Shown piece by piece: positions 7,241 through 59,236 of a DNA stretch of 64,000 bases. The DNA lies in assembly GCA_043798985.1 (NCBI GenBank), contig JAZDOE010000018.1, forward strand, positions 8,057 to 72,056, given 5' to 3'. The notes below the pieces were generated by a model. That model was not told the origin of the DNA. It did no database searches and worked only from the letters and a program-made list of their open reading frames with translations. Origin of the DNA: Candidatus Falkowbacteria bacterium. GTDB taxonomy: Bacteria; Patescibacteriota; Patescibacteriia; UBA11705; JACRDX01. Position numbers and translations under genes: made by a program. Numbering within the stretch: the stretch's first letter is position 1; each line of letters begins with the position of its first letter.

Positions 7241-7255
7241 GCATAAGATGGCAGT

Positions 7256-8203: not shown

Positions 8204-8206
8204 ATT

Positions 8207-9145: not shown

Positions 9146-9171
9146 AATTTGTAATTTGGCATTTGTTATTT

Positions 9172-11465: not shown

Positions 11466-11471
11466 ATATTT

Positions 11472-12959: not shown

Positions 12960-12960
12960 T

Positions 12961-18275: not shown

Positions 18276-18288
18276 AGATTAGGGTTAT

Positions 18289-19083
18289 ATGGAAAAAGAA
18301 GTTGTGCCCAAACAAACAGCAATGGCTTCAAGAAAGGACTATGATTTTACGGCGGTGCCGATGAGATTTTTTGCTTCTTTTTTTGCAAAATGGCTTGCTA
18401 CTCTTGGCGTAACTCCGAATCAGATAACATTATTCAATTTTTTAGTGCTTACCCCGGTCATTTCGTATTTTTTTATAAGAGGTGGGTATCTGGAAAATTT
18501 GATTGCTTTTGGGTTTATTTTTGTATATATGATATTTGATTTGTGCGATGGGATGGTTGCGCGATTAAGATCTTTACAGTCTGGATTCGGACAAACTCTT
18601 GATAGCAGTTTGGATAGAATTTTTCAAGGAGTATTGTTTATTTCAGTGATTTGTGGAGTTGTTTTGACCTCCGCAAACTGGCGGTGGGCTATTCCTGGAA
18701 TGTTGTTATTGTTTGGGCAAGGAATGGCGAACTGCATGGGCTTGGAATTTGAGAAACGGTTTGGGTTTGATGGATATTCCGGATTGCCCACTTTTAACGA
18801 AAAGTTTAAGTTGGGTGGCGTGGTTACTTTAGTAGATAAGTTTTTAAAGAATATCATTGTCCCGCATAATTTTTGGTATATTTTAATTTTTACGTGTAGG
18901 TACCAGTTTTTCCTCGGTATTTTATTTGATCAATTGGGGATATTTTTGATAGTTTTTGCGATAGCTATAAATATTAGATGGATCGTTTTATATCTTTTAC
19001 TAATGCGCTATTTGTATGGCGGAAAAAGTAAGTTACGAAGCCTTACGTTTTTAAAGGAGCTAGAATATGAAAAACGGAGTTAA
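18289..19083 (+). CDS. CDP-alcohol phosphatidyltransferase-family membrane transferase
   Basis: PNQITL plus DLCDGMVARLRSLQSGFGQTLDSSLDRI, which fits D-G-x2-A-R-x8-G-x3-D-x3-D. Polytopic membrane protein. Confidence 0.65.
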   Translation: MEKEVVPKQTAMASRKDYDFTAVPMRFFASFFAKWLATLGVTPNQITLFNFLVLTPVISYFFIRGGYLENLIAFGFIFVYMIFDLCDGMVARLRSLQSGFGQTLDSSLDRIFQGVLFISVICGVVLTSANWRWAIPGMLLLFGQGMANCMGLEFEKRFGFDGYSGLPTFNEKFKLGGVVTLVDKFLKNIIVPHNFWYILIFTCRYQFFLGILFDQLGIFLIVFAIAINIRWIVLYLLLMRYLYGGKSKLRSLTFLKELEYEKRS

Positions 19084-19121: not shown

Positions 19122-21782
19122 ATGAAGATTGTTTTTGTCGTTGCGGGGGATGAAAATTTGGGGGTAGAATATTTAGCGGACTATTTGAAGAAAAATCATC
19201 ATCAAGTTGAGTTATTGTATGACCCGCAAATATTTGGAAAAGCGCACTTAAACATTTCTTTTTTAGGAAGATTGTTTGATTGGAAAAAATTAAATTTAAA
19301 AAAAATAAAAAGAGCCAGTCCTGATATAGTTGGTCTTTCTTGCGTCACGGCAACATATCAGTGGGCGAGAGATTTTGCAAAATTGGTAAAGACGGAATTG
19401 AGCATCCCGATCATTTTTGGTGGAGTTCATCCAACATTGGTTCCTGAGCTAGTTATAAAAGATGATTTTGTGGACATGGTTTGCGTGGGGGAAGGAGAAG
19501 AACCCCTTTTAGAGCTGCTGGATAGTTTGACGAACAATGCGCAGCGAACCGACATTAAAAGTCTTTGGTTTAAAAAAGGGGGGCAAATAATTAAGAATGA
19601 GGCGCGAGCATTGACAGAAAATATAGATAATTATTGCCTTGATAAAGAATTGTTTTTGGACATTTTGCCTAAGAATTTCAGAAAGGAGATAAATTATTTG
19701 ACGAGCAGGGGTTGCCCGTATAGGTGCACGTATTGTGGAAATGAACAAAAGGCTAAAATTTTTCAGGGTAGGGGAAAATATTTAAGACAAAAGAGCGTCC
19801 AGAGCGTGATCGCAGAACTTCAAAAGATAAAAAATGAGTACTCGTCCCAATACGTTGTTTTTGTTGATGATGTTTTAACGATGGATAGAGCTTGGTTTAG
19901 AGAGTTTAGCAAAATTTACGCAGAAAAAATAGGGTTGCCATTTACCTGTTTTGCACATTGTAAAATCATGGATGAGGAATTGATGATATTATTGCGTGAT
20001 GCTGGATGTAAGCTGATTGGATTTGGAGTGCAGTCAGGATCAGAGGAGACAAGGAGGAACGTGTTAAATAGGTATGAAACCAATGAGGAAATTTTGCAAG
20101 CGGCGGAGCTGTGCCGCAAGTATCAGATGCGGTTTATGGTCGATCACATTTTTGACATCCCATTTGATGATACAAACAATCTTGAATCTTTAAGGTTTTA
20201 TAATAAGGTGCGGCCGACAATGCTGAATGCGTTCAATCTGTTATATTTTCCTTGCGCAAAGATAATAGATTCCGGAATAAAGAGCGGAAAGATAACTGAC
20301 GCCGACGTCACCCTGATAAACGAGGGGCGATCAGTTGTCTACGAAACTGGAGCGGCGACTAGAAAAATAAAAGGAAATAAGAAAGACAATTATAGGAAAT
20401 ATGCGCTGCTTTATCAGCTGATGGTTTTATTTCCTCAACGATTTTTTGAAAAAATTTTGAAGCGGCAAAAAATAGTTGACCTCATTGGGATGTTTTCCCT
20501 TTCGTTCGTTTCAGTTGCCAGGATATTAGTCAATATAAAAGCTGGGCATGGATTTATTCCGCTTAGGATTATCAAAGATGAGATTTATTGGATGGTAAAA
20601 ACAGTCAAAGAAAGATCCTCTTGGCGTCCCAGAAAAGATGCGATGGATAAAATTTTAATTATATCGCCGTTTGTTTCTCCAAATGTTGGTGGGGCGGAGA
20701 CGCACATAGATGATTTAAGCGACTATTTAGCTCAAAAAAATTTTGATGTCCAAATTTTAACTTATCAACCATTAACGACGGACGCCAGTGGCGCATCTAA
20801 AGAAATGAGGGGCGCGCGGATAAAGATTAGAAGATATGCATGGTTTGGTCATAATATCTTCCATCGACTAGCGAATTTTCCGATTTTAAATTTTTTATAT
20901 ATAACTCCGTATTTGTTTGTTCGTTCTTTCTTTTTTATGTTAAGTAATAGCCGAAACTTCCGATTGATAAACGCTCACGGGCTTAATGCTGTATTTATCG
21001 CCGTTGTTTTAAAAATTTTTTTTAACAAAAAGATTGTCTTCAGCACAATGGCTCTTTATGATTTCAGGGACGGTTCGGTATTTAAAAAAATTACACAGCG
21101 TGTTTTGCGTAAGGTTGACCGGATTCTTGCACAGTCCGAAGAATCCAAAGCTGAATTTGTCTCCCTTGGTTTTCCCGTGGAAAAAATTGATGTTTTTGTT
21201 CACTGGGTGAATGTGAGTCGTTTTTATCCGATTGAGAAAAATGAAGCTAGATATCATTTAGGGTGGGAGAACAAGTTTACAGTAATTTTTGTCGGGAGAT
21301 TGATTTTTTTAAAAGGAGTGGATTTAGTTATTCGCGCTGCCGAGGCATTACAAGACATAACTTTTGTAATCGTTGGAGATGATGGCCCTCTTTTAGAGGA
21401 CGTTGCGCGCGCCTCAAAAAATATGAAAAATTTAAATTTTGTTGGCAAAGTAGAATACTCGGCATTGTCAAAATATTATAATGCGGCGGATATTTTTCTT
21501 TATCCGGCGAGGTATAAAGAGGATATGGCGCGTGCGATAAACGAATCGCTTGCCTGCGGAACGCCTGTTTTGGTGGCAAATATTGGCGCGGAGCCATATA
21601 CAATTGACTCCTCGGTCGCTCGGCTTATTGTGCCGGAGGTTGAAAGTATTGTCGCGACAATAAAAGCCTTGAAGCAAACTCCATCGTTGTTATTGGACAT
21701 GCAAAGAGCCGCTCCGAAGTTTATCAAAGAGCTGAATCAAAAGGTTGCTGATATAATCATTGAGGGCTATAATAAAGCATGA
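19122..21782 (+). CDS. Fusion protein: N-terminal B12-binding radical SAM (class B, Fom3-like architecture) and C-terminal GT1 (GT4) glycosyltransferase
   Basis: The B12-binding-like N-terminus is followed by TSRGCPYRCTYCGN (canonical CxxxCxxC). The C-terminal half ILIISPFVSPNVGGAETH...ESLACGTPVLVAN is a GT4 fold. Confidence 0.7.
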   Translation: MKIVFVVAGDENLGVEYLADYLKKNHHQVELLYDPQIFGKAHLNISFLGRLFDWKKLNLKKIKRASPDIVGLSCVTATYQWARDFAKLVKTELSIPIIFGGVHPTLVPELVIKDDFVDMVCVGEGEEPLLELLDSLTNNAQRTDIKSLWFKKGGQIIKNEARALTENIDNYCLDKELFLDILPKNFRKEINYLTSRGCPYRCTYCGNEQKAKIFQGRGKYLRQKSVQSVIAELQKIKNEYSSQYVVFVDDVLTMDRAWFREFSKIYAEKIGLPFTCFAHCKIMDEELMILLRDAGCKLIGFGVQSGSEETRRNVLNRYETNEEILQAAELCRKYQMRFMVDHIFDIPFDDTNNLESLRFYNKVRPTMLNAFNLLYFPCAKIIDSGIKSGKITDADVTLINEGRSVVYETGAATRKIKGNKKDNYRKYALLYQLMVLFPQRFFEKILKRQKIVDLIGMFSLSFVSVARILVNIKAGHGFIPLRIIKDEIYWMVKTVKERSSWRPRKDAMDKILIISPFVSPNVGGAETHIDDLSDYLAQKNFDVQILTYQPLTTDASGASKEMRGARIKIRRYAWFGHNIFHRLANFPILNFLYITPYLFVRSFFFMLSNSRNFRLINAHGLNAVFIAVVLKIFFNKKIVFSTMALYDFRDGSVFKKITQRVLRKVDRILAQSEESKAEFVSLGFPVEKIDVFVHWVNVSRFYPIEKNEARYHLGWENKFTVIFVGRLIFLKGVDLVIRAAEALQDITFVIVGDDGPLLEDVARASKNMKNLNFVGKVEYSALSKYYNAADIFLYPARYKEDMARAINESLACGTPVLVANIGAEPYTIDSSVARLIVPEVESIVATIKALKQTPSLLLDMQRAAPKFIKELNQKVADIIIEGYNKA

Positions 21783-26749: not shown

Positions 26750-27384
26750 AAACCGCGATTTACGCAAAATATGTGCAGGACTTATGCAAAGAGTTTGTGA
26801 AAAAACAGGATAAGGTTTTTGATTGCGGCTGTGGCGATGGTTCTAAAACAAAAATTTTGATGCAATATTCTGACAACGTGATCGGCGGCGATCTTGACAA
26901 CAGAGTTGCGCTGGAGTTTAAAATAAATTTTAGAAAAATAATGCCCACACAATATGGCGACGAAAATGATTTTGATGTTGTTTTCTCGTTCGACGTGATT
27001 GAGCATATTAAGAACGATGCCGATTTCTTGGTGGAGTTAATGAGAATAACAAAACCGACAGGAGTGATAATTGTCGGTACGCCGAACAAAAATAGGCTCT
27101 CAAATAAAGTCACTGCGTTGATAAATGGCGAAATACAATATCCGCGTAAATTGGGATTTCACTATGAGAGCGGCGGTGATATAATTCATGTCAGAGAATA
27201 TACAAAACGAGATTTATTGGATTTGGCAGAAAAATTGAATATCAAAAATGTAGTTATTCGCGCTGGATTTTTGGGGCTTTATACTCCATTTGGCGCGGTT
27301 GGATTTAAAGGATTGAATCAAAAAAGATTTGCCGAATATGCGCAGCATTTGTTTTTAATTATAAAAAAATATGCAAAAAAATAA
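26746..27384 (+). CDS. Class I SAM-dependent methyltransferase
   Basis: VFDCGCGDGSKT motif I. DVVFSFDVIEHI post-I motif. Confidence 0.6.
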   Translation: MKTAIYAKYVQDLCKEFVKKQDKVFDCGCGDGSKTKILMQYSDNVIGGDLDNRVALEFKINFRKIMPTQYGDENDFDVVFSFDVIEHIKNDADFLVELMRITKPTGVIIVGTPNKNRLSNKVTALINGEIQYPRKLGFHYESGGDIIHVREYTKRDLLDLAEKLNIKNVVIRAGFLGLYTPFGAVGFKGLNQKRFAEYAQHLFLIIKKYAKK

Positions 27385-27871
27385 TCAACAATCGATAATT
27401 GAAAAATTCATGTATTTTATTTTGGACGTTGATGGTGTGTTTACGACGGGACAATTTTTGTACACAGCCGATGGAAAATTTGCTAAAGTGTTTGGCCCAC
27501 ATGATAGTGATGGCATAAAATTGGTTTCCGAATTCTTGAAAGTTCAGGTGATTAGCGCTGACAAACGTGGCTGGCTGATTACAAAAAAACGTATTGCTGA
27601 TGATATGGGGCTGCAATTAGATAATGTCGTTGAGGCAGAACGGATAGATTGGTTCCGCAAAAATTTTGATCTTTCAAAAACCATTTACATGGGAGACGGG
27701 ATTTATGATGCCAAAGTTTTTGAATTGGTGGCATATAGCATTGCGCCGGCCGACGCGTTTTATATTGCACGGGAAAAAGCAAGCTTTGTTACAAAATGTA
27801 AAGCAGGAGAAGGCGCTGTCGCCGAAGCGTGTTTGCATATTTTGGAAAAATTTTTTAATCAAAAAATATGA
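27371..27871 (+). CDS. KdsC-like HAD-superfamily sugar-phosphate phosphatase
   Basis: FILDVDGVFTTG (DxD nucleophile) plus YMGDGIYDAKVFELVAYSIAPADA (GDxxxD). The length matches the KdsC/YrbI family. Confidence 0.7.
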   Translation: MQKNNQQSIIEKFMYFILDVDGVFTTGQFLYTADGKFAKVFGPHDSDGIKLVSEFLKVQVISADKRGWLITKKRIADDMGLQLDNVVEAERIDWFRKNFDLSKTIYMGDGIYDAKVFELVAYSIAPADAFYIAREKASFVTKCKAGEGAVAEACLHILEKFFNQKI

Positions 27872-28689
27872 AAATAGACAGAGATACGATCTGCTGTGTT
27901 TCTATTGCCGAGCGACCTGGTAATTTGGGCGCGGCAATTTTTAACGCGGCGTTTCAGGAATTGAATTTGAATTATGTTTACAAGCCATTTTGTGTTTTTG
28001 CGAAAGATTTGCAAAAAGCGATTAACGGTATGCGCGCGTTTGGCATTCGCGGTTGCGGCGTTTCAATGCCACATAAAAGTACAGTAATGCAATATTTAGA
28101 TAAGATCGATGAGGCGGCGAAGAGGATTGGCGCGGTAAATACAATAGTAAATGACGATGGCGTTCTATCTGGGTATAATACTGATTATGTAGGATTTAAA
28201 CGTGCGCTGGCAGAGAGTTATGCTGTATGCAGGAAAAAAGCATTTATTATTGGCGCTGGTGGAGCGGCGCGGGCGATTATTGTCGCGCTAAAAGACGGCG
28301 GTGCGGCTGAAATCTATCTTACTAATCGTGACGAGCAAAAAGGATTAGATTTGGCAAAAGAGTTCTCTTTGCATTATTATCCGTTTGACAAACGAGCAGA
28401 ATTAAGTGCTGATATTTTGGTTAACGCGACGCCGGTCGGCATGGCCCCGAATGCAGAAGAATTGATAATTGACAAACAAGTACTAGTGCACTATCATGCG
28501 TGTATGGACGTTGTAGTGTCTCCAAGAAAAACTGGTTTAATTTTAGCGGCAGAAGCGGCTGGAAAAATTGCCATTCATGGGGTGAAAATGGCACTATATC
28601 AGGGGCTCTCACAGTACGAATTGTATACAAAGTTATCTGCGCCAATCGATATTTTACAAAAGAGCATGCAGAAGTATTTAAATAATTAA
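27868..28689 (+). CDS. Shikimate/quinate dehydrogenase-like (AroE family) oxidoreductase
   Basis: GVSMPHKSTV, NTIVNDDGVLSGYNTDYVGF, then a GAGGAARAI Rossmann motif. Confidence 0.6.
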   Translation: MKIDRDTICCVSIAERPGNLGAAIFNAAFQELNLNYVYKPFCVFAKDLQKAINGMRAFGIRGCGVSMPHKSTVMQYLDKIDEAAKRIGAVNTIVNDDGVLSGYNTDYVGFKRALAESYAVCRKKAFIIGAGGAARAIIVALKDGGAAEIYLTNRDEQKGLDLAKEFSLHYYPFDKRAELSADILVNATPVGMAPNAEELIIDKQVLVHYHACMDVVVSPRKTGLILAAEAAGKIAIHGVKMALYQGLSQYELYTKLSAPIDILQKSMQKYLNN

Positions 28690-28700
28690 CTTGGTACACT

Positions 28701-30287
28701 ATGGATTATAAGGTTTGCATTTTAGCTGCTGGCGCGGGGACACGAATGGGAGAGTTTTCAAATGTTATAAATAAAGCGGTACTTCCCATCAACTTTAAGG
28801 CCGTAATTTCCCATATTATCGAAAAATTTCCTAAGGAGATTGAGTGCGTTATTGCGGTCGGTCATAAAAAAGAAACCGTACAAGATTATTTGACGATTGC
28901 GCACACGGATAGAAAAATTACTTTTGTAGAGGTTGATAAATACATTGGACCGGGTACAGGACCAGGGTATTCATTGCTTAGCTGTAAAAATCAGCTACAA
29001 TGTCCTTTTATTTTTTTTGCCGCAGACACACTCGTGTTGGAAGAAATTCCAGAGCCAGATAAGAATTGGTTTGGCATTGCGCCGGTAAAAGAGACAGAAA
29101 AATATTGCACGGTAAAAATAAAAAATAATTTGATTTATCAGCTCGATGACAAAGTCAAAAATGACAATAAATTCGCGTTTATAGGGTTGGCGGGCGTAAA
29201 AGATTATCAACAATTTTTTGAAGCATTGGAGAAGAATAAAGAAAGTATAAGTGGAGAAATACAGGTTTCAAATGGATTTAGAAAATTGGTTGATAGTCAG
29301 CTGATTCCCGTGGGATTTACTTGGTTTGATACTGGTTCTATAGAAAATTACGACAAAACAAATAAAAATTTTACTGCGGAGATTAAAAAATTCGACTTTA
29401 GCAAGGGGCAGGGAGATGAATTTTTGTACTTCGTAAATGGCAAAGTGATCAAATTTTTCGCTGATCAAAAAATTGCTGCTAACCGTTATGCGCGCGCGCA
29501 GAGTGCGTTAAAAGGATTGTGCCCCAACATAGAAGCCTATCGTGGGAGTTTTTATTGTTACAAAAAGGTTGATGGGCAAACGCTATATAGCATTTTGAAT
29601 AGACAGACTGTAAAGAATTTTTTGGTTTGGGCGAAGACGCATCTATGGAAAAAGCAATTGCTTTCCGAGATTGAAAATGAAGAGTTTTGGGCCGCCTGTA
29701 AAAAGTTTTATATAGATAAAACAACGAAGAGATTGCAGTCGTTTTATGAAAAAACAGGCATAGAGGATGGATATACATATATAAATGGAGTCTATGTGCC
29801 GCCGCTAAAAAATTTGTTTGATAAAGTCGATTGGGGGCAGATTACAGATGGTACGCCGAGTAATTTTCACGGAGATTTGCAATTTGATAACATTTTGGTA
29901 ACGCGTGATATCGTGAGCAACTTAGAGAAATTTATTTTGCTTGATTGGCGACAAGATTTTGCTGGTTTGACAAAGATCGGAGATCTTTACTACGATTTCG
30001 CAAAATTATACGGGGGAACCATTATTTCATATCAATTAATAAAGGAAGGCCTATTTTCGTTTGACATGAGCGGCGCCAGTGTTTATTACAATTATCACCT
30101 AAAAAACGATTTGATCGAAGCAAAAGATGAGTATGAGGCGTTTATAAATAAAAATGGATTTGATTTGAAAAAAATAAAAACTATAACCGCGATTATATTT
30201 TTGAATATGTCTCCCTTGCACAAAGAGCCGTTTAATTTGATGCTGTATTTCATGGGGAAGAGTATGCTTTATAAAGTAATTAGTTGA
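28701..30287 (+). CDS. Bifunctional sugar/alcohol-phosphate nucleotidyltransferase (N-terminal) and APH/choline-kinase-fold kinase (C-terminal); LicC-LicA-like or MurU-AmgK-like
   Basis: VCILAAGAGTRMGE...NKAVLPI is an NTP-transferase motif. The C-terminal HGDLQFDNILV is the APH/ChoK Brenner motif. Confidence 0.6.
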   Translation: MDYKVCILAAGAGTRMGEFSNVINKAVLPINFKAVISHIIEKFPKEIECVIAVGHKKETVQDYLTIAHTDRKITFVEVDKYIGPGTGPGYSLLSCKNQLQCPFIFFAADTLVLEEIPEPDKNWFGIAPVKETEKYCTVKIKNNLIYQLDDKVKNDNKFAFIGLAGVKDYQQFFEALEKNKESISGEIQVSNGFRKLVDSQLIPVGFTWFDTGSIENYDKTNKNFTAEIKKFDFSKGQGDEFLYFVNGKVIKFFADQKIAANRYARAQSALKGLCPNIEAYRGSFYCYKKVDGQTLYSILNRQTVKNFLVWAKTHLWKKQLLSEIENEEFWAACKKFYIDKTTKRLQSFYEKTGIEDGYTYINGVYVPPLKNLFDKVDWGQITDGTPSNFHGDLQFDNILVTRDIVSNLEKFILLDWRQDFAGLTKIGDLYYDFAKLYGGTIISYQLIKEGLFSFDMSGASVYYNYHLKNDLIEAKDEYEAFINKNGFDLKKIKTITAIIFLNMSPLHKEPFNLMLYFMGKSMLYKVIS

Positions 30288-30293
30288 TAATTT

Positions 30294-31301
30294 ATGCTGC
30301 GGCAACCTTTGACATCTACCATAGGGATCGGTCCTATGAGCTCTGAAATTATTGAGGCTGTTTTTCGTTTTTCGCATTACCACAGAAAACAGTTGATGTT
30401 GATCGCGTCAAAAAATCAAATTGATCATAGCGGTGGCTATGTAAATAATTGGAATACTGCACAATATGCGGCATTTATTGCAGAAATAAAAAAAATATAT
30501 CCAATGAGCGATGTAAAAATTTGCAGAGATCATTGTGGACCTGGATTCAATGGAATCGACGAGATAGCCGATTGTTATAAAACAATAGAAGATGATATAA
30601 AAAATGGCTTTGACCTGATGCACATTGATTTCTGTCATTTTAAAGGTGATAAAGGACAGCAGTTGGAAGAAACTAAAAAGGCAATAGAATATTGTTTAAA
30701 ATTACGACCTGATATCTATTTGGAAATTGGCACCGACGAAAATTATGGCGCAAATTATAACCTTCCAATTTTGGAAGAAATTGCACGAGAACTGGATTAT
30801 TTTAAAAATTTTTGCGTGCCTGAGTTTTATGTTGTGCAAACAGGCACGGTCGTTAAAGAAATCGGACAGGCAGGACACATTAACAAAGAGGCCGTTGAGC
30901 AAATCAGCGCAATCCTTAAAAGTAAGGATGTAAAATTAAAGGAACATAACGCTGATTATCTTTCAAAAGACGAGATCGTTTCCAGAAGAGGGATTGTGGA
31001 TGCCGTGAACATTGCTCCGCAGCTTGGGGTTGTTCAAACAAAGATTGTTTTGTCAAAATGCCTAATTTATGGAATAGATCCGTCAGAATTTTTGGAAGAA
31101 GTTTATAAAAAGGGTAAGTGGAAAAAGTGGATGGATAAAAATACCATGGAAAACAAGTTGCTTTGTTGTGAAATTGCAGGGCATTATCATTTCGCTTCTG
31201 ATTCTTATAAAAAAATTATTTTAAAATTAGCAGAACGAGAAGAGATTAAGGAAAACTTGATAAGTGTTGCGTCAGATATTATATCGCATTATTTAACTTA
31301 G
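30294..31301 (+). CDS. GatZ/KbaZ-family protein (tagatose-bisphosphate aldolase accessory / ketose-phosphate-binding TIM barrel)
   Basis: IGIGPMSSEIIEAVF, LIASKNQIDHSGGYVN, CRDHCGP and MHIDFC parallel the GatZ motifs ICSVCSAHP, EATSNQVNQFGGYTG, GGDHLGP and IHLDCS. Confidence 0.5.
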   Translation: MLRQPLTSTIGIGPMSSEIIEAVFRFSHYHRKQLMLIASKNQIDHSGGYVNNWNTAQYAAFIAEIKKIYPMSDVKICRDHCGPGFNGIDEIADCYKTIEDDIKNGFDLMHIDFCHFKGDKGQQLEETKKAIEYCLKLRPDIYLEIGTDENYGANYNLPILEEIARELDYFKNFCVPEFYVVQTGTVVKEIGQAGHINKEAVEQISAILKSKDVKLKEHNADYLSKDEIVSRRGIVDAVNIAPQLGVVQTKIVLSKCLIYGIDPSEFLEEVYKKGKWKKWMDKNTMENKLLCCEIAGHYHFASDSYKKIILKLAEREEIKENLISVASDIISHYLT

Positions 31302-31321
31302 TATTTAATTAATTTAATTTT

Positions 31322-31699
31322 ATGTATCCTAAAACGGTGATAAAACCATGGGGCAAGGAGATTTGGTTAGAATTAAATGACAGATATTGCTATAAGAGGA
31401 TTTATATTAACGCCGGAACCAGGACGAGTTTTCAGTATCATGAAAAGAAACAAGAAACAAACTACATTATTGAAGGCGAGGCGGAAGTGTGGTTGGAGAA
31501 TGAAACCGGTGAAATCGCAAAAAGGAAAATGGGCGTAAATGACTTTTTTAATGTTATTCCTCCGCGGAAGCACAGAGTTATTGCGATTACTGACTTGATT
31601 CTTCAAGAGGTTTCTACCCCTGAAGTTGATGATGTCATTCGAATTGAAGACGATGCTGCTCGACCAAGCGGAAGAATTGCGGCAGAGCACAAGAATTAG
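31322..31699 (+). CDS. Cupin-domain protein (sugar isomerase/epimerase-like small barrel)
   Basis: KPWGKEIW...FQYHEKKQETNYIIEGEAEVW is a cupin_2 pattern. Confidence 0.5.
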   Translation: MYPKTVIKPWGKEIWLELNDRYCYKRIYINAGTRTSFQYHEKKQETNYIIEGEAEVWLENETGEIAKRKMGVNDFFNVIPPRKHRVIAITDLILQEVSTPEVDDVIRIEDDAARPSGRIAAEHKN

Positions 31700-31719: not shown

Positions 31720-32994
31720 ATGCGGTTGTGTTTTTATAATCCGCACGCGATAATCAATGCCACAGGTGAAACCGTCGTATCAAGATTGGCACAATTTTTT
31801 GGTACTAACAAAAAAAAACTGAGAAAGCACGTTCAGAAATATTCATTTTTGTTAAATATTTTAAGAAACAAAAAATACAAAACGGCCATTATCGTCGATG
31901 GCGCAGAAACTTCGTTCGGAGCGGTTTTAAATAGAATCTTGCTCCTTAAAAATAATCAATTCATCTACTGCGCGATCTCTTTTGTAGAAATATACATTTG
32001 GTGTTTGTTAAACAAAATAAATCCATTGAAACAAACGATAATTTTCAATAAAAAAAGATTGCGAATAGACGAAGATATTTTGTTTGGCTTTGCGTTCTGT
32101 TCGGAGTTATTTTTAAACGAACAATTACTGAGTAAAAGTATAATGAAATCCTTTAACGGTCTAAAGATCTTGCATGCTTCTCATTTTTATAAATTTACAA
32201 AACGCGTCGCTGAGAATGTTCATAAAGCGGGAATTAAATACATGGTTGCAGAAACCGATCTGAAAAAGTCGCCGTATTTTAATAAGTTTTTTGGTTTTAT
32301 TGAAAAAGTGTATATTCTGCCACATGTTTTGAGAGAAAAATATATAAAAATTACGGATTTCGCAAATAGAAAAAATATTTGCCTTGCGCTGGGAACGCTT
32401 GTGATTGAAAGTGCGCAGGACAAATCCAACCAAGACTATTTGGAATTTTTCAAAATAGACACATTGCATCCGATGAGAAAAATCATTTTTGAAAATAAAG
32501 ATAATCTTCCGCAAATTGATTGTTGCATTAACCTTCATAATAAAGACAGGATGGTGATTTCGCAAAAATCAAAATGGTACAACAAAAACGGTTTTTTCAA
32601 ATTGTTCTACGATTTATTTTTTTTAGCAGAGGGAAAAGAATATCACAGCATGGACATTGTGAAAAAATATAATGAATATAAAATGTTTATCGCGCCCGAA
32701 GAAAATATCGGTTTAACCTCTATAAACGTATGCGAAGGAATGGCTTGCGGCTGCGCGTATATAGGGCTGGATAGCGATATGTATAAAGATATGGGCATGA
32801 TTGGCACGCAACATTATATTGCGTATGACGGCATGTTTGAAGATTTAAAAAATAAAATAAATTATTATCAAAATCATCCGAGCGAGCTGGAACAAATCGC
32901 GCAAAACGGTTATGTGTTTGCGCACGAAAATTTTGCGGAAGAAAAAGTGGTCGCAGATTTTTGGACTTACTTGGAAAAATTGATACAACGATAA
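31720..32994 (+). CDS. Divergent glycosyltransferase family 1-like protein
   Basis: C-terminus EGMACGCAYIGLDSDMY...ELEQIAQNGYVFAHENF resembles GT1 C-terminal domains. The N-terminus is unassigned. Confidence 0.4.
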   Translation: MRLCFYNPHAIINATGETVVSRLAQFFGTNKKKLRKHVQKYSFLLNILRNKKYKTAIIVDGAETSFGAVLNRILLLKNNQFIYCAISFVEIYIWCLLNKINPLKQTIIFNKKRLRIDEDILFGFAFCSELFLNEQLLSKSIMKSFNGLKILHASHFYKFTKRVAENVHKAGIKYMVAETDLKKSPYFNKFFGFIEKVYILPHVLREKYIKITDFANRKNICLALGTLVIESAQDKSNQDYLEFFKIDTLHPMRKIIFENKDNLPQIDCCINLHNKDRMVISQKSKWYNKNGFFKLFYDLFFLAEGKEYHSMDIVKKYNEYKMFIAPEENIGLTSINVCEGMACGCAYIGLDSDMYKDMGMIGTQHYIAYDGMFEDLKNKINYYQNHPSELEQIAQNGYVFAHENFAEEKVVADFWTYLEKLIQR

Positions 32995-35576
32995 TGAAAA
33001 ATTGTTTTAATTCAGTACGGTCTATTAAGATTGGCATTATTTTTTTAACATGTCTTTTCTTTTTAATTTTGCTGATTCTATACTCTCAAAATTATTTGCT
33101 TTTGGGCGGGGAGGGGAATTATATTACTGATTTTCAGCTCACAAAAGACGCGGGGATTTTTACATGGGTTTCGCACATTCAAGGATTGGGATTTCCAAGC
33201 CCTATCTTAAATGCGCTTCGTGGAATTTTCGACCTATTCGCGCTGCTACAAAAATTAACGCTTTCTTTTAAGGTTGCAAATATTGTAAGTGCTTGGCTGG
33301 TTTATATTCTGCCCTTTCTTTCAATGTTTTGGCTGTTAAGCAAAATATTGAAAAGGAGTTTTCCCCTTGCGTATTTTGTTTCATTATTTTATATCATAAA
33401 TCCTTTCAGTACGTTCCATTTACAAGGATTAATGTTTTGGAATATTGCGCTGCTGTTTGTTCTGCCTTTGATTTTCGGCGTGCTTTATAAATATTATTCT
33501 CATGGCTTAAAACTGTTTTTCTTTTTTGGATTGTTGACCAGTCTCTTATCCTTTTCGCTCGCGAATATTCCTTATTTGGGTATTTTCCAGATTTTTTTAT
33601 TCAGTTCATTGATTATAATTCCCTACATGCAAGAAAAAACGCCGCGCGTCCGCGCTGTTGTTAAAAATATCGTCATAACGGAACTAAGTTTTTTGCTTTT
33701 TAACGCGTGGTGGTTTTTAAATCTGTTGCGTTTTCAGATGCAGGACATTGGTCTTTATTATACAAAAGAATTTGCCGTTAGTTGGGCGCAGGCTTATGCG
33801 GGCGATGGAAGTATAATAGCGAAACTTTTCTCATTAACTTCATTAATTTCAAGCAACGATGATAATTTTTTTGCAAGTTTTTTTTACAGCATTCCGATGA
33901 GGCTGATTCTGCTTGTGCCATTTGGATTACTTACCTTTCAGTTTTTTATAAAGCCAAGCAAAGAATATTCTGTTGATAAAAAAATTGTTTCAATTCTCGC
34001 GCTTTTCGTTGCAGGGATTATGTTTTTTGCCAAAGGCGCGAATCAACCACTCGGCGAGCTGTATATTTGGATGCTGAATCACATTCCGTTTTTTATTATC
34101 TTCAAAAGTCCGATAGAAAAATTTTCTTTGCTTTTTGTCTTTTTTTTGGCGCTCACGATGATTTATGTTTTTAAAAATATAAAAACCAAATGGGCGTATT
34201 GTTTGTTTGCAGTTTACCTGACCGCGTGCAGCATCCCATATCTTAGTTTGAATTTTATGCCTGATTTTAGATTCGAAAAAGGCGCCCAAGGAGAAGAGGA
34301 TAAATATATTTCCAAAAAATATGTTTATAAAGAAAATTATTTTGCGGCGGCAGAATCGCTCAATAAACAAAAATTAGAATGTCGATATTTAAGTTTGCCC
34401 GGCTCAGCGAATTACCAGGTAACTTTATTGAACCATGATGGCAATAAATATTACCGCGGCATGGATCCATTCGTTTATTCGGTTAATAAGCCTTTTATTA
34501 CATCCTACTCAACGCCCGCTTTGAATTTTATATTTTACGGTCTCTCGAACGATTCCATTGAAATTTTTTTAAACGCGTTTAATATAAGAAAGATAATCGT
34601 AAATCAAGATCTCTATCCATCATTTGGCAGGGTGGAGAAGGAGCTTCCCGAAGAATTGATAAGTATTTTTTCTAAAAAATATAAAAAAGAAGATTTTAGC
34701 CCAATAACAGTTTTTAGCGTGAAAGATTTTTTGCCGCTTATTTATGTCCCACGCAATTTGATAGTAGCGGAAAACGCTACTGAGCTATCTGCTATTCTTT
34801 CGGAAGCAGATTATAAAATTGATTCGGCGATTTATTTTAAAAATCAGCTTAGTGATAAGGAGACGCAGCCATCTCTGGCGGCAAAAGGCGTCCTTCCGGC
34901 GGTAGAATTCAAAAGAATCAACTCGATTAAATATCGCGTCGTTTTGCATCAAGCGCACGGTGAGTTGCCTGTAATTTTTAACGAATCGTTTCATGCTGGC
35001 TGGAAATTGTATCCGACAAATTTGCAGTCGGTTGATAGCGTTGGTCTGCAGAACAGGCTTGCAGATTATAATATTTTGGATGGCAACGAAGATGATCAAG
35101 CGACAATCGATGAGGTTAAAAATTATATTCAACAAGGATTTATAACCTCGCTTGGCAACGGCAAAGAAAAGACGGTAAAGCATTGGCGACTAGTCGTTGA
35201 TAAGAAAAAATTGGATTACATAGAAAAATATAAAATTGATTTTGTATCTAAAAATTTTCATGGCACAATTCAAAATAATAATCTTATCGATGGAAATTTT
35301 TATGAGACATGGCGATTCAATTCGCTTGCTAACCATGGCAGCCATGTAAAAGTGAATGGTTTTTTTAATAGTTGGATTATTAACGTGGACGATATTTGCG
35401 CTGGAAAAACGTTATGCCAGTGGAATCCTAACGGAACCTATGACATGGAATTAATTTTAGAATTTTCGCCGCAACGATTATTTTATTATGGGCTGGCGAC
35501 GTCTATCGCAACACTGTTTTTGTCGCTCGCATCTTTGTTCTTTGTGAGTTTAATAAAAAAACACGCGAAACAATAA
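32994..35576 (+). CDS. Large polytopic membrane protein (about 12-14 TM N-terminal domain plus soluble C-terminal domain); candidate GT-C/YfhO-like glycan transferase or polymerase
   Basis: Topology inferred from the hydrophobicity pattern only. The start is chosen at the ATG overlapping the upstream stop (TAATG); the ORF track gives 32961. Confidence 0.3.
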   Translation: MKNCFNSVRSIKIGIIFLTCLFFLILLILYSQNYLLLGGEGNYITDFQLTKDAGIFTWVSHIQGLGFPSPILNALRGIFDLFALLQKLTLSFKVANIVSAWLVYILPFLSMFWLLSKILKRSFPLAYFVSLFYIINPFSTFHLQGLMFWNIALLFVLPLIFGVLYKYYSHGLKLFFFFGLLTSLLSFSLANIPYLGIFQIFLFSSLIIIPYMQEKTPRVRAVVKNIVITELSFLLFNAWWFLNLLRFQMQDIGLYYTKEFAVSWAQAYAGDGSIIAKLFSLTSLISSNDDNFFASFFYSIPMRLILLVPFGLLTFQFFIKPSKEYSVDKKIVSILALFVAGIMFFAKGANQPLGELYIWMLNHIPFFIIFKSPIEKFSLLFVFFLALTMIYVFKNIKTKWAYCLFAVYLTACSIPYLSLNFMPDFRFEKGAQGEEDKYISKKYVYKENYFAAAESLNKQKLECRYLSLPGSANYQVTLLNHDGNKYYRGMDPFVYSVNKPFITSYSTPALNFIFYGLSNDSIEIFLNAFNIRKIIVNQDLYPSFGRVEKELPEELISIFSKKYKKEDFSPITVFSVKDFLPLIYVPRNLIVAENATELSAILSEADYKIDSAIYFKNQLSDKETQPSLAAKGVLPAVEFKRINSIKYRVVLHQAHGELPVIFNESFHAGWKLYPTNLQSVDSVGLQNRLADYNILDGNEDDQATIDEVKNYIQQGFITSLGNGKEKTVKHWRLVVDKKKLDYIEKYKIDFVSKNFHGTIQNNNLIDGNFYETWRFNSLANHGSHVKVNGFFNSWIINVDDICAGKTLCQWNPNGTYDMELILEFSPQRLFYYGLATSIATLFLSLASLFFVSLIKKHAKQ

Positions 35577-35596: not shown

Positions 35597-36709
35597 ATGA
35601 CTAAAATAAAAATAATTTTAAACTGGCTTAAAAACATAAAAGTCATTTATAATCTTCGAGAATTTTTTGTTTTTTATCTATCAAAATTTTCAGAATTTAA
35701 AAAGCTACCCGCTGATAAAAAATATTTACTCTCTAATTACGGTTTTGTCGGTAGTTATTGCTCGCGGCTTTTTGTTGACCATGCTCCTGTTTTTATGGAA
35801 TCGGAAATAAAAAATATTGCGGAAAAGGTTTTTGACGATGAGGATTCAAGGAAGTTATATTATCTGTTTTTTTTAAGGCAAATGCATTGCGCATATTTTG
35901 TTGATGGTTGGGAAAAATATTATGATGACGAAAGAACGTTTGAAGAAAAATTGAGGAAAATAAAATCTGCTATAGCAAGCAATGTTATTTTTGTGGGGAA
36001 CCTTTTTTTCACTAAAACAAAGAAGAAAAAAAAATTTATTCTAAACTTTACAAACGGTGCAACTTATATTTTGCCAATCAATTGGTTTGAGATAAGTGTT
36101 TTTTGCATGAAGCTCGGATTGCCATACTTAAAAGCCGAATATCTTAGTTATATAAAAAGGGGGAACGTCATAGATGCGGGCGCGTTCGTGGGGGACAGTA
36201 GTATTGTCTTAGCTGAATACACCGACGAAAAAGTATTTGCTATAGAAGCACACGCGGAAAATTTTAAATTATTGGAAAAAACAGTAGCGTTAAATAATCT
36301 ACAAACCAAAATAATTGCTTTAAATGCAGCGCTGGATAGAGAAGTCAGGCGGGTTAATATTATCAGCAGTGGCGCGGGTGCGCGAACGGCTGTCGCTGAC
36401 GGTCAATTTTGCACCGTTTCGACTGTGACTTTGGATAAGTTATTTGAAAACAAAAGTCAAAAAATCAGCCTCATAAAACTTGACGTGGAGGGATTTGAAA
36501 TGAATATACTCTTAGGCGCCGATCAGGTGATTCGGCGAGACAAGCCAGTCCTTTTTGTCTCTATTTATCATAGTGGCGAACAATTTATTAACGTTCCGTT
36601 ACAACTTAAAGAAAAATACTCGGATATTTATAGTTTTAAGTTTATTGATTGTAATCCCGTTCATCCGTTGGCGGAAAAGGTTTTGTTGTGCTTGCCTAAA
36701 GATGTTTGA
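35597..36709 (+). CDS. FkbM-family methyltransferase
   Basis: VIDAGAFVGDSSIVLAEY...VFAIEAHAENFKLLEK...NL matches the Methyltransf_21/FkbM core. Confidence 0.6.
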   Translation: MTKIKIILNWLKNIKVIYNLREFFVFYLSKFSEFKKLPADKKYLLSNYGFVGSYCSRLFVDHAPVFMESEIKNIAEKVFDDEDSRKLYYLFFLRQMHCAYFVDGWEKYYDDERTFEEKLRKIKSAIASNVIFVGNLFFTKTKKKKKFILNFTNGATYILPINWFEISVFCMKLGLPYLKAEYLSYIKRGNVIDAGAFVGDSSIVLAEYTDEKVFAIEAHAENFKLLEKTVALNNLQTKIIALNAALDREVRRVNIISSGAGARTAVADGQFCTVSTVTLDKLFENKSQKISLIKLDVEGFEMNILLGADQVIRRDKPVLFVSIYHSGEQFINVPLQLKEKYSDIYSFKFIDCNPVHPLAEKVLLCLPKDV

Positions 36710-38406
36710 TTCCAAAAGTTGATATGCGATTTCCTAGTAAAAAAAACATGGTTTCACTGCTGCCCTATTTTCTGATTATTTGCGCAATTGCGCTGCCGTG
36801 GTTTTTATCTTCTGCATATTTATTTTTTGTGGATTTATCATGGGGGCCAATTATTAATATTGATTGGCATGGATCTTATTTGTTTCTTACGCTGATATTT
36901 AGATTGTTAACATACTTTTTGTCGAGTGCCCTTGTGGAAAAAATTTTTATTTCAGCGATCTTGCTATTTATTCTTTTAGGCGGAAGAGCGTTAGTTATGT
37001 CGGTTTTGAAATTATGTCAGAACGATGCGTTGGATGGTCATAATGGAGTAGTTTTTGTTTTAAGTTTGTTTTTACTGTTTAATCATTTTGTTTATGATCG
37101 TGCGCTGTATGGGCAATTTGGTATTCTCGCGGCTTATGGTGCATTGCTTTTTTTGTTTGCTTACTCATTGAGAACGTTGAAAGAATTAAATCCACGGTAT
37201 TTGATTTACGCGATAGCGTCAGCTACGATCAGCATAATGTTTGCAATTCATTTCATTTTTTTGGTTGCGATAATTTTTTTGTTATTATTTTGGGGCTTAT
37301 TTGCACAACAAAAGTTAATTAGAGCACGGAAGTTGAATAAGTCTCTTTGGCAAGCGCTGTTCCTTTCCGTGCTAATATTTTTGATTCTTAATGCAAATTG
37401 GTTGGCATTTTTTTTCCTCGGTGAAGGTGCATCACTAATTGCGCAAGATATTGGCCGACAAGACTTAAATATTTTTAAAACCGCGGGTATAACGCAAACA
37501 GAAGCAGTGTCGAACGTCTTTTTTATGGGGGGGTTCTGGGCAAAGGATATGAATCGGTATGTTGACATGGCCGCTTTAAAACAAAACTGGGGTAGAAGTT
37601 TTTTTCTGTTATTGCCATTAATTTGCTGGGGTGTGATAAAAGGATTACGAAACAGCAAACAAGAGCCGAATTTGTTTTATTTCACAATTGGTTTGATAAT
37701 AATTTTTGCTACGACGTTTATTTTAGCATTAGGAATAAGTACGCCATTTAGTAGCAAAATAACATTATTGCTATTTAACAACTTTCCGCTTTATAAAGGA
37801 ATGCGTGAACCGCAAAAATGGGTAGCGCTCATTGTAATCATTTACACAATATTTTTATCTATCGGGGTAAAAGAATTTTTTAAATTAAAAATCATTGCTA
37901 AAGATCATATTTTGTTTAAAATTATTTTGACGCTGGTGATTATTATGCAGGCTCCGTTGCTACTTTGGGGATTTGGCGGGCAGATAAAACCGGTTGATTA
38001 TCCAAAAGATTGGTATAGGGTTGATAAGATTACCGCAGGCAATGCGATATCTCAAAAATGCGATGATAAAATTTTATTCTTACCATGGCATATGTACATG
38101 GGATTTCAGTGGGTTGGCCGTGTCATTGCCAATCCGGCAAAAGTATTTTTCCAATGCCCTGTTATAAGCGGAACAAATATGGAAGCAGGCCCGATTTATG
38201 ACAATAGCGGTGACCCAACGGGACAAAAAGTCGCGGCATGGATTTCTGCTCAGGGTGAAACCAACTTGTTTGTTTCAGAAAAAATAAAATATATTATTTT
38301 AGCCAAAGAAGTAGATTGGCAAGGTTACGCTTGGATAAATTCTTTGACAAATTTGCAATTGATTAAAGATTCTGAAACGCTTAAACTATATAAAGTAGTT
38401 GAATAA
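36706..38406 (+). CDS. Polytopic membrane protein, uncharacterised (candidate GT-C/ligase/polymerase)
   Basis: 566 aa and more than 10 hydrophobic helices. Confidence 0.3.
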   Translation: MIPKVDMRFPSKKNMVSLLPYFLIICAIALPWFLSSAYLFFVDLSWGPIINIDWHGSYLFLTLIFRLLTYFLSSALVEKIFISAILLFILLGGRALVMSVLKLCQNDALDGHNGVVFVLSLFLLFNHFVYDRALYGQFGILAAYGALLFLFAYSLRTLKELNPRYLIYAIASATISIMFAIHFIFLVAIIFLLLFWGLFAQQKLIRARKLNKSLWQALFLSVLIFLILNANWLAFFFLGEGASLIAQDIGRQDLNIFKTAGITQTEAVSNVFFMGGFWAKDMNRYVDMAALKQNWGRSFFLLLPLICWGVIKGLRNSKQEPNLFYFTIGLIIIFATTFILALGISTPFSSKITLLLFNNFPLYKGMREPQKWVALIVIIYTIFLSIGVKEFFKLKIIAKDHILFKIILTLVIIMQAPLLLWGFGGQIKPVDYPKDWYRVDKITAGNAISQKCDDKILFLPWHMYMGFQWVGRVIANPAKVFFQCPVISGTNMEAGPIYDNSGDPTGQKVAAWISAQGETNLFVSEKIKYIILAKEVDWQGYAWINSLTNLQLIKDSETLKLYKVVE

Positions 38407-38410
38407 AATT

Positions 38411-39151
38411 ATGGCAGCAAAAGAAAAAACGCGCAACATATTGAAGTTTTTGTTGAATGATATTGCGGAAATTTTTCCTTTGCTGTTTGTTTTCTATGCT
38501 GCTGCTTTTTTGCTATCCTTAGTTTTTGAATCATGGAAATTGTATTTTAATTGGCCAATATTCCACGTTAACATTTTAATTTTGGGTTTGTTTAGTTTTT
38601 TGAGCGAATACGGACGCAAAAAATTTGCTACGATAGTTTCTTTTATAAAAGTAGAGGCAAAAAAAATCGTTGCGTCAACGTTAAACAAATCAATGTTCCG
38701 TGATAAAAAAGTAAACATTCTTAATTTACTATTCATTATTTCAGAAATCGCGATTACGTATATTTTTGCGATCATTAAACGAGCAGTAATTGGTTTGCTA
38801 AAACTTATTATTAAAATCATCGCGCTTGCTTTGGATATTCGCCAGCAAGGATTTAAAAACTATTTAAAATTTGTTTTGCTTGCAATTATTTTAACCTTTG
38901 CGATTACGAAAGGAGCAAATGTTGTTGAATTACTGATTTGGATTTACGCGTTTCGTGCGATATTTGTAGGCATTGATAGTCGCATTAGCGCTGGTATTGC
39001 TTTGGCCTTGTTGGCAACCTGCCCGATTTTATTAATTTTAAAAAAGAATGCGATAGCCGAACAATCTGCTGTTTTTGCGTATTATTTTTTGGTTATAGTT
39101 GTAATCACGCAAATTATTGAATTACGCCGCGAATCAAAAACAAAGAAATAA
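38411..39151 (+). CDS. Hypothetical membrane protein
   Basis: Hydrophobic helices. The start is set at the ATG just after the upstream stop; the ORF track gives 38399. Confidence 0.3.
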   Translation: MAAKEKTRNILKFLLNDIAEIFPLLFVFYAAAFLLSLVFESWKLYFNWPIFHVNILILGLFSFLSEYGRKKFATIVSFIKVEAKKIVASTLNKSMFRDKKVNILNLLFIISEIAITYIFAIIKRAVIGLLKLIIKIIALALDIRQQGFKNYLKFVLLAIILTFAITKGANVVELLIWIYAFRAIFVGIDSRISAGIALALLATCPILLILKKNAIAEQSAVFAYYFLVIVVITQIIELRRESKTKK

Positions 39152-59119: not shown

Positions 59120-59215
59120 AGCTTCAGCGAGGCGAGTCGAAATACGAAACAAATTAGAAATCAGAATGTCCCAATATTGAATCATTGTGATTTCGTGCTT
59201 CAAATTTCGAGCTTC
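59120..59215. repeat. Intergenic repeat family B (copy 2), in the divergent region between DUF212 and manC
   Basis: 59163-59201 AGAATGTCCCAATATTGAATCATTGTGATTTCGTGCTTC. About 85% identical to copy 1, in the same orientation. Confidence 0.5.
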
Positions 59216-59236
59216 TTTGTTAATATATCATCAAAT

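Follow-up and report, generated by a model that had tools for sequence, protein, structure and literature searches.

A five-gene cassette in a Falkowbacteria glycan island

The DNA studied here is a 64,000-nucleotide (nt) stretch from a Candidatus Falkowbacteria bacterium (contig JAZDOE010000018.1, positions 8,057 to 72,056; called the window below, with all positions counted from its first letter), and its subject is a cassette of five genes at 27371-31699. The five open reading frames (ORFs), all on the + strand, are packed tightly, and since only overlaps of 4-14 nt and gaps of 6-20 nt lie between them, their layout is operon-like. In order, they encode a HAD phosphatase, an oxidoreductase of the shikimate dehydrogenase (SDH) family, a fusion of a nucleotidyltransferase (NTase) with a kinase, a GatZ/KbaZ-like protein and a cupin. 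A first-pass annotation, made from the letters alone, had named these families; its coordinates proved exact, and every family assignment was reproduced in our searches. In the source annotation, the same proteins are called 'NTP transferase domain-containing', 'phosphotransferase', 'non-catalytic aldolase subunit' or hypothetical. The cassette is embedded in a long + strand glycan island (~7.2-39 kb of the window) that holds GT2 and GT4 glycosyltransferases, dehydratases and epimerases of nucleoside diphosphate (NDP) sugars, a DegT aminotransferase, many methyltransferases, B12-radical-SAM enzymes and a four-domain phosphonate-synthesis fusion; housekeeping genes come after the island.

The first gene (27371-27871, +) encodes a KdsC-like (C0-type) HAD sugar-phosphate phosphatase of 166 amino acids (aa). 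It matches the KdsC-type model TIGR01670 with an E-value of 9.6e-18 (64.6 bits, under the cut-off of 106.95) and NF007019 with 58.4 (under the cut-off of 208), while its Protein Data Bank (PDB) matches, AQ2171 and KdsC, reach 6e-14 to 1e-12 in alignments that cover the whole protein. The catalytic motifs of C0-type HAD enzymes are present as DVDGV (residues 19-23) and GDGIYD (residues 108-113). Orthology with KdsC itself was rejected, as the scores lie under the curated cut-offs; no Kdo genes (kdsA, kdsB or kdsD) were found in the cassette or in the surveyed flanks.

The second gene (27868-28689, +) encodes a 273-aa SdhL-type NADP(H) oxidoreductase of the SDH family, with Pfam matches to Shikimate_dh_N (3e-21), Shikimate_DH and SDH_C. 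Its best PDB match is 1NPY (HI0607, SdhL; 2e-51), and it also matches 7COK, an SDH-family 5-ketofructose reductase. Compared with E. coli AroE, the protein keeps K70, N91, D106, Q245 and an NADP-type arginine, K70 and D106 being the equivalents of the catalytic Lys65/Asp102 pair (E. coli numbering) and invariant in the alignment. In place of the AroE Ser14/Ser16 loop it has a longer loop, A-x-R-P-x-x-x-G, and in place of Tyr215 a Val (Val, Ile or Ala across the cassette homologues). We take Ser14, Ser16 and Tyr215 to be the residues with which AroE binds the carboxylate and hydroxyls of shikimate; considering that the loop and the tyrosine are replaced, the cassette protein is not a housekeeping shikimate dehydrogenase. 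Of the equivalog models, TIGR00507 alone was passed, and marginally so (202.2 against 200.2), the others remaining under cut-off, including PRK12550 (245.7 against 306). The housekeeping assignment was rejected on account of the lost substrate residues, the mostly insufficient equivalog scores, the exchange with a short-chain dehydrogenase/reductase (SDR) described below and the lack of aro neighbours, none being found among the ORFs annotated across the whole 64 kb window. The likeness to SdhL (Haemophilus influenzae HI0607) extends to an RP[SG]N[FL]G loop, the loss of Tyr215 and the catalytic Lys/Asp pair; unlike the SdhL class, however, the cassette enzyme scores under the PRK12550 equivalog cut-off, belongs to a glycan operon and can be exchanged for an SDR. 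One paper places an sdhL gene adjacent to a sorbose operon, and the SDH-family 5-ketofructose reductase demonstrates that this fold can reduce keto-sugars (PMC7954740).

The third gene (28701-30287, +) encodes the NTase-kinase fusion of 528 aa, which has a 100% identical counterpart (P0001) among NCBI proteins from metagenome-assembled genomes, assigned to Candidatus Falkowbacteria. Its sugar-1-phosphate NTase domain (28701-29405, +; residues ~1-235) matches the Pfam families NTP_transf_3 and NTP_transferase and carries the invariant motifs GxGTR, K25 and WFDTG. A family profile of the domain, compared with the PDB, aligned over its positions 4-225 with RmlA (3HL3, 4.6e-13) and GalU (3JUJ, 5.5e-11), and then with HddC (5XHW and 6JQ8). 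On the other hand, IPCT and TarI match solely the N-terminal nucleotide-binding part, and LicC aligns with the profile over positions 3-113 only, that is, over the same N-terminal half. Because the domain aligns at full length with sugar-1-phosphate NTases, a glycosyl-1-phosphate is the favoured substrate.

The C-terminal half of the fusion (29418-30287, +; residues ~240-528) is a putative anomeric sugar kinase of the choline-kinase/APH (ELK) fold. It has no Pfam match in the protein of the window, and divergent fusion orthologues match PF01636 (APH) directly; the invariant motifs are HGDLQFDN (390-397; the Brenner motif) and LLDWRQD with the Mg-binding D415. An AlphaFold model of residues 240-528 has a predicted local distance difference test (pLDDT) score of ~90 and gave 40 Foldseek matches at E ≤ 1e-3, nearly all of them ELK-fold kinases, with ethanolamine and choline kinases, fructosamine-3-kinase (FN3K) and macrolide and aminoglycoside phosphotransferases (Mph, APH) as the top relatives. 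Orthology with AmgK/MurU was rejected on the curated cut-offs and the glycan-island context: the fusion reaches 18.2 bits with the MurU model NF045697, whose cut-off is 370, and no match to an AmgK or LicA model came up at E ≤ 0.01. The first-pass annotation had named two findings that would refute its reading, orthology of the AroE-like protein with housekeeping shikimate dehydrogenase amid other aro genes, and orthology of the fusion with a characterised MurU/AmgK in a peptidoglycan-recycling context; both checks came out negative.

The fourth gene (30294-31301, +; 335 aa, with the start called at Met15 by NCBI) encodes a short GatZ/KbaZ-like TIM barrel of the class II aldolase superfamily. 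Its scores against sequence models are low, with a weak, N-terminal match to PF08013 (26.1 against a cut-off of 26.7) and 25 against 569 for TIGR02810. Its AlphaFold model (pLDDT 84) is, by Foldseek, closest to the GatZ structures 2FIQ and 3TXV (template modelling (TM) score 0.76, E 2e-13), followed by class II fructose-/tagatose-bisphosphate aldolases, YdjI and GatY. When the protein was aligned with E. coli GatZ and GatY and with the more divergent homologues from other cassettes, D79, H80 and H218 proved to be the same throughout, and only Asp or Glu occupied position 148. These residues (D79, H80, D148 and H218 here) correspond to Asp87, His88, Glu171 and His257 of GatZ, which have been proposed as catalytic base and zinc ligands in work reporting that GatZ and KbaZ alone epimerise fructose-6-phosphate (F6P) to tagatose-6-phosphate (T6P) at C4 (PMC11907403). 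An H-[NS]-x-D-Y loop (HNADY here) is also common to the cassette protein and GatZ; aldolases have their HG(G/A)SG phosphate-binding loop at this place. We conclude that the protein probably represents a catalytically competent but distinct, shorter subfamily. It has the fold of E. coli GatZ and KbaZ, formerly described as 'aldolase chaperones', together with their catalytic Asp-His pair, Glu/Asp and second metal-binding His, but its setting, a glycan island, is anabolic and lacks a GatY/KbaY partner, whereas GatZ and KbaZ serve the catabolism of galactitol or GalNAc.

The last gene (31322-31699, +) encodes a 125-aa monocupin resembling type II phosphomannose isomerase (PMI), which scores 32.9 against PF01050 (cut-off 23.6). 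Across 14 cassette cupins, residues K8-P-W-G, Q38, H40, E45, H84, D104 and R107 do not vary, and the Q/H/E/H metal quartet together with a C-terminal DDVxRxxDD motif is typical of type II PMI domains. The type II PMI-GMP enzymes AlgA, XanB and ManC likewise combine an NTase with a PF01050 cupin and have the KPWG and DDVxR motifs; their cupin, however, is C-terminal, while that of the cassette is stand-alone or, in fusions, N-terminal, the cassette NTase is not a ManC orthologue, and a kinase and a phosphatase stand in place of phosphomannomutase. Among the ORFs scanned in the window, the cassette cupin is the sole PMI-type cupin. A separate ManC-like mannose-1-phosphate guanylyltransferase (59177-60376; NTP_transferase plus ManC beta-helix) is without a C-terminal PMI cupin.

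Conservation, gene exchange and spread

For a survey of related loci, we took one genome per GTDB species and tallied the locus ORFs with phmmer. The survey gave 79 species-level loci in which the five genes, or most of them, stand side by side; leaving truncated loci aside, nearly every locus has the cassette genes adjoining the fusion. Such adjacency of the same genes in 79 independent species-level loci from many phyla means that their grouping is not due to chance: the five genes are a functional unit, and the genomic comparison thus bears out their treatment as a set in the first-pass annotation. Several of the genes are also fused to one another. The cupin is joined to the N-terminus of the NTase-kinase in at least seven proteins, the GatZ-like protein forms an NTase-kinase-GatZ fusion in two (P0362 and L046) and the phosphatase a KdsC-HAD-NTase fusion in another two (L040 and L051); HAD_2-NTase, IMPase-NTase and NTase-kinase-GT2 fusions are found elsewhere. 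The HAD gene is present in 58 of the 80 cassette loci, and the phosphatase is exchangeable, in that an enzyme of the IMPase/FBPase family replaces or accompanies it in eight loci and a HAD_2 fusion is seen in L023.

The oxidoreductase is exchangeable as well. A tally over the 80 loci gave an SdhL-like gene in 42, a FabG-like SDR (often placed between the GatZ-like gene and the cupin) in 25, both in none and neither in 13. This mutual exclusion (Fisher's exact p = 1.5e-11) points to a single oxidoreductase role filled by two unrelated folds. Some of the 13 reductase-less loci are truncated contigs, but complete loci without a linked oxidoreductase were also found, namely in Yanofskybacteria (L002 and L026), in two loci labelled Bdellovibrionales and Marinagarivorans (L065 and L066) and in Sulfuriflexus mobilis (L085). 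We therefore dropped the reductase as an obligatory core step and define the conserved core as HAD, GatZ-like protein, cupin and NTase-kinase. The AroE-like enzyme is a replaceable or accessory step, and some lineages omit the reductase or encode it elsewhere; the family that the first-pass annotation gave it stands, with the refinement that the enzyme is not the core of the pathway.

The immediate neighbours across loci are methyltransferases, GT2 and GT1/GT4 glycosyltransferases, Wzx-type flippases, Glyco_trans_1_2-like proteins and WavE. Transferases of the TagF, LicD or CDP-alcohol type, like LicB-type families, are missing from the 25 families most often found in the 137 immediate flanking genes. 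Since, in addition, LicC matches just the N-terminal half of the NTase domain, a true sugar is favoured over the phosphocholine-like head group that the first-pass annotation had offered as an alternative.

Relatives of the fusion are numerous, amounting to more than 2,500 clusters at 90% identity (E ≤ 0.001) or 682 clusters at 50% identity (E ≤ 1e-30). Carriers of the cassette include, in the candidate phyla radiation (CPR), Falkow-, Yanofsky-, Buchanan-, Kaiser-, Yonath-, Andersen- and Komeilibacteria and Saccharibacteria and, among DPANN archaea, Woese-, Pace-, Nano- and Iainarchaeota. A divergent clade (35-50% identity), with the gene order rearranged to HAD, GatZ, cupin, NTase-kinase and SDH, occurs in Bdellovibrionota, Planctomycetota, Verrucomicrobiota, Elusimicrobiales, SAR86, Pelagibacteraceae, Flavobacteriaceae and Myxococcaceae. 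Across domains of life, the module retains 60-79% identity. The Falkowbacteria fusion is 65-70% identical to DPANN copies and 48-63% identical to several CPR copies, and this closer relationship to the archaeal proteins points to inter-domain transfer. Our scan found no relatives in viral contigs and, at its sensitivity, no sign of carriage by phages.

The closest relatives of the fusion (68-78% identity) lie on metagenome-assembled contigs titled Gammaproteobacteria, Pseudomonadales or Bdellovibrionales (L004-L008, L049 and L057), with DPANN and CPR copies next; these titles reflect either very recent transfer or mislabelled bins. The cassette is also carried by a cultured gammaproteobacterium, S. 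mobilis, in whose complete genome (AP018725.1, 1,742,393-1,763,973; L085, locus 7125-13555) the genes for HAD, GatZ-like protein, a 274-aa protein, cupin, NTase-kinase, a 378-aa methyltransferase and a GT2 enzyme follow one another with no linked reductase. In the S. mobilis clade, the gene of the 274-aa protein recurs at this place, flanked by the GatZ-like gene and the cupin gene (cluster 11, eight loci); the protein has no Pfam match, and as its resemblance to GT-A enzymes was judged by eye alone, we give it no assignment.

Further variation concerns the fusion and its surroundings. DPANN loci (L016, L018, L019, L021, L051 and others) often add a stand-alone paralogue of the NTase domain (~235 aa) and a DUF218 protein. 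This extra paralogue is present in 18 loci, being fused to a methyltransferase in L050 and to a WavE-like domain in L054. In P0481, an NTase-kinase homologue carries a fused GIY-YIG/NUMOD3 module at its N-terminus, and GIY-YIG homing-endonuclease genes come right after the cupin in two Yanofskybacteria loci (L002, 11035-11301; L003, 10341-10628), suggesting invasion of the cassette by mobile elements.

A proposed route to an activated sugar and its alternatives

Of the possible readings of the cassette, we favour, with somewhat better than even confidence, that of a self-contained, horizontally mobile module which would turn a ketose phosphate of central metabolism into a rare sugar, activated as its NDP derivative for use by the glycosyltransferases encoded nearby. 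In the proposed scheme, the GatZ-like metalloenzyme would epimerise the ketose phosphate at C4 by a retro-aldol/aldol reaction, as GatZ and KbaZ do, and the PMI-like cupin would turn the ketose phosphate into an aldose phosphate. The APH-fold kinase would then phosphorylate C1 to give an aldose-1,n-bisphosphate, and the KdsC-like HAD would strip off the terminal phosphate to leave an aldose-1-phosphate, so that the two enzymes together would relocate the phosphate in the manner of HddA and GmhB in GDP-heptose synthesis. By analogy, a bisphosphate that is anionic at C1 would resemble the natural substrates of KdsC, whose two ends bear a carboxylate and a terminal phosphate. The NTase domain would finally produce the NDP-sugar to be used by the adjacent glycosyltransferases. 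The SdhL-like NADP(H) enzyme, or the FabG-like SDR in its place elsewhere, may reduce a keto intermediate or tailor the product, perhaps in the way of known SDH-family and SDR keto-sugar reductases, and would be dispensed with in a few lineages.

From the observed folds, retained catalytic residues, co-occurrence, fusions and glycan context, we infer in which order the reactions run, that the GatZ-like protein is an epimerase rather than an aldolase, that the kinase is specific for the anomeric position, and what the substrate may be. As to the substrate, the simplest guess would lead from F6P through T6P and a talose- or galactose-type hexose-1-phosphate to an NDP-hexose; an input of sedoheptulose-7-phosphate, giving a 4-epi-heptose, is equally allowed, as sequence alone does not choose between the two. 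The first-pass annotation had left the activated compound as an unusual sugar, polyol or cyclitol. Synteny, fusions and the glycosyltransferase, flippase and methyltransferase genes in the flanks strengthen the reading as a nucleotide-activated unusual sugar, and a true sugar is favoured over a polyol or cyclitol by the full-length alignment of the NTase with sugar-1-phosphate enzymes and by the flanking families, as discussed below.

The cassette is most likely of a known kind, a nucleotide-sugar pathway, assembled in a new way. Its proposed logic would match, activity for activity, the route to GDP-D-glycero-alpha-D-manno-heptose (GmhA, HddA, GmhB and HddC), and a kinase-NTase fusion is also known in the ADP-heptose pathway (HldE). 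At the same time, apart from the NTase, the folds differ from those of the heptose enzymes or match at superfamily level only: the isomerase is a PMI-type cupin instead of the SIS-fold GmhA, the kinase has the APH/choline-kinase fold instead of a GHMP or ribokinase fold, the phosphatase is KdsC-like instead of GmhB, and the cassette adds a GatZ-like retro-aldol/aldol enzyme and usually a reductase. Salvage systems such as AmgK-MurU and those of the NahK/GlmU type likewise pair an APH/ELK-fold kinase with a sugar-1-phosphate NTase. Compared with AmgK-MurU, however, the cassette pair is fused, non-orthologous and accompanied by an isomerase, an epimerase-like enzyme and a phosphatase, and its context is a surface-glycan island rather than cell-wall recycling.

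Several points weigh against the scheme. Residues with which GatZ contacts its substrate are changed in the cassette protein (Glu44 to Ile37, Lys279 to Asn239 and Cys20 to Gly13), which is also ~85 residues shorter than GatZ (335 against 420 aa) and may act as an aldolase or catalyse another retro-aldol reaction. The nearest structural relatives of the modelled kinase phosphorylate small primary alcohols such as ethanolamine and choline, and the AlphaFold model of the NTase half is poor (pLDDT ~30-40), the profile-to-PDB sequence search being used instead. The order of kinase before phosphatase is drawn by analogy only. Moreover, the scheme has no need of a reductase, yet one adjoins the cassette in 67 of the 80 loci, and the scheme is therefore probably incomplete for the version found in the window.

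A rival reading, which we consider improbable, is a de novo route that begins with an aldol reaction. Here the GatZ-like protein would be a class II aldolase dependent on dihydroxyacetone phosphate (DHAP) or dihydroxyacetone, joining the triose to an aldehyde (for example lactaldehyde or one derived from methylglyoxal) or to an aldose phosphate, with a 6-deoxy-ketose or a higher ketose phosphate as the product. The reductase would supply or reduce the carbonyl partner, the phosphatase would free the ketose, the cupin would isomerise the free sugar, and the kinase (at C1) and NTase would activate it, so that the whole would amount to the fucose/rhamnose catabolic pathway in reverse followed by salvage. 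Such a route would give every one of the six activities a role, the reductase included, and is consistent with the class II aldolase superfamily fold and the presence of YdjI, fructose-bisphosphate aldolase and GatY among the structural matches, with the asparagine at position 239, as in the aldolase GatY, where GatZ has a lysine, with the IMPase/FBPase-family phosphatases that replace or accompany HAD in eight loci and with the use of free ketoses by the known SDH-family and SDR keto-sugar reductases. On the other hand, the HG(G/A)SG loop by which aldolases bind the phosphate of DHAP is replaced by the GatZ-type HNADY loop, the signatures of the cupin are those of a type II PMI phosphosugar isomerase and not of a free-sugar isomerase, and some complete loci, that of S. 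mobilis included, have no linked reductase.

Slightly less probable again is a donor of the NDP-alditol type, as for a teichoic-acid-like polyol phosphate, in which the ketose phosphate would be epimerised, dephosphorylated and reduced by the SdhL-like enzyme or SDR, a primary hydroxyl re-phosphorylated by the choline-kinase-like domain, and a CDP-alditol formed. As a rule, CDP-ribitol and CDP-glucitol are made by an NTase paired with a reductase; the proximity of the kinase model to ethanolamine and choline kinases points in the same direction, as do weak NTase matches to inositol-1-phosphate, ribitol-5-phosphate and phosphocholine cytidylyltransferases. The full-length match of the NTase, however, including the C-terminal sugar-binding WxDxG region, is to sugar-1-phosphate NTases, and this route would leave the strictly conserved PMI-like cupin without a role. 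The flanks, with their GT2 and GT1 enzymes and a fused GT2, and with TagF-, LicD- and CDP-alcohol-type transferases outside the commonest families, argue against it too, as do the complete loci from which the reductase is absent.

A cyclitol or carbasugar pathway, in which the AroE-like enzyme would reduce a carbocyclic ketone arising from an aldol-type cyclisation and the NTase-kinase would activate the cyclitol (compare valienol and validamycin), is very unlikely. Carbocycles are the canonical substrates of the SDH family, an IMPase-family gene is present in eight loci, and C7-cyclitol pathways contain a kinase, an epimerase, a reductase, an NTase and a HAD phosphatase; but no cyclase of the DHQS/EEVS or MIPS type was found in or next to any cassette examined, the SDH-like gene can be swapped for a generic FabG-like SDR and is dispensable in some loci, and the residues for the shikimate carboxylate are lost. 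The least credible reading is that the fusion is a homologue of AmgK-MurU (MurNAc recycling) or LicA-LicC (phosphocholine) next to three unrelated genes: it shares their architecture of an NTase with an APH/choline-kinase-fold kinase and matches LicC (1JYK) weakly, at 1.6e-3, but it falls far short of the MurU model and matches no AmgK or LicA model at E ≤ 0.01, it has no peptidoglycan-recycling or lic gene context, the supposedly unrelated genes are syntenic in many phyla, with cupin and GatZ-like protein even fused to the NTase-kinase, and the phosphonate head group of the island is already served by a cytidylyltransferase of its own.

Returning to C4 epimerisation followed by activation, a bolder claim, which we put forward tentatively and regard as rather unlikely as a whole, is that an epimerisation of the GatZ type before activation leads to a nucleotide sugar with no known biosynthetic route, for example NDP-D-talose or a 4-epi-heptose such as D-glycero-D-talo/galacto-heptose, and that the module is exchanged between CPR bacteria and DPANN archaea. 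If this is true, the GatZ family and the orphan SdhL class would each gain a biosynthetic role for the first time, and the exchange would make the module a shared surface-glycan trait of ultra-small episymbionts. We found no description of the module in open-access papers, which is weak evidence of absence. Nucleotide-sugar pathways set which monosaccharides a cell displays, the surface chemistry of host-attached CPR bacteria and DPANN archaea is almost unknown, and the module is assembled from parts with no homology to the enzymes that textbooks give for these steps. Its elucidation would assign functions to the SdhL and short GatZ-like classes and possibly a new activated sugar and enzymes for the synthesis of rare-sugar nucleotides; since the cultured S. 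mobilis carries the cassette, a direct test is feasible.

Neighbouring genes in the glycan island and the window

Directly downstream of the cupin, the gene at 31720-32994 (+) encodes a 424-aa Glyco_trans_1_2/GT90-like protein (PF13524, 6.6e-6; PF05686, 3e-5). Homologues hold the same position in the closest relatives (cluster 8, nine loci), and PF13524 accounts for 8 of the 137 immediate flanking genes across cassette loci. By its adjacency, this protein is a candidate transferase for the cassette product.

Upstream in the island, a 1208-aa fusion of four domains (14649-18275), namely a cytidylyltransferase-like domain, a phosphoenolpyruvate (PEP) mutase, a phosphonopyruvate decarboxylase and an Fe-alcohol dehydrogenase, scores 408 bits against TIGR02320 and 493 bits against TIGR03297, and is directly followed by a CDP-alcohol phosphatidyltransferase (18289-19083). 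Together, the genes at 14649-19083 look like a complete route to a cytidylylated head group of the 2-hydroxyethylphosphonate type for the same glycan. Further unusual genes of the island, at 19122-21782, 11472-12959 and 12961-14586, encode an 886-aa protein in which a B12-binding radical-SAM domain is fused to a GT4 glycosyltransferase, a stand-alone B12-radical-SAM enzyme and a GT2-methyltransferase fusion, and B12-radical-SAM genes recur close to the cassette in other genomes (cluster 6, 13 loci).

Several large ORFs have no Pfam or NCBIfam match, at 32961-35576 (871 aa), 36706-38406 (566 aa), 38399-39151 (250 aa), 4385-5623 (412 aa) and 5939-7240 (433 aa). Lying in the glycan island or at its edge, they may encode polymerase, ligase or membrane components. 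Further along the window, a phosphoglycerate kinase ORF of 268 aa (54059-54865) matches the family profile over positions 120-379 only, with the N-terminal third absent, possibly owing to a frameshift, an assembly error or an unlisted upstream start.

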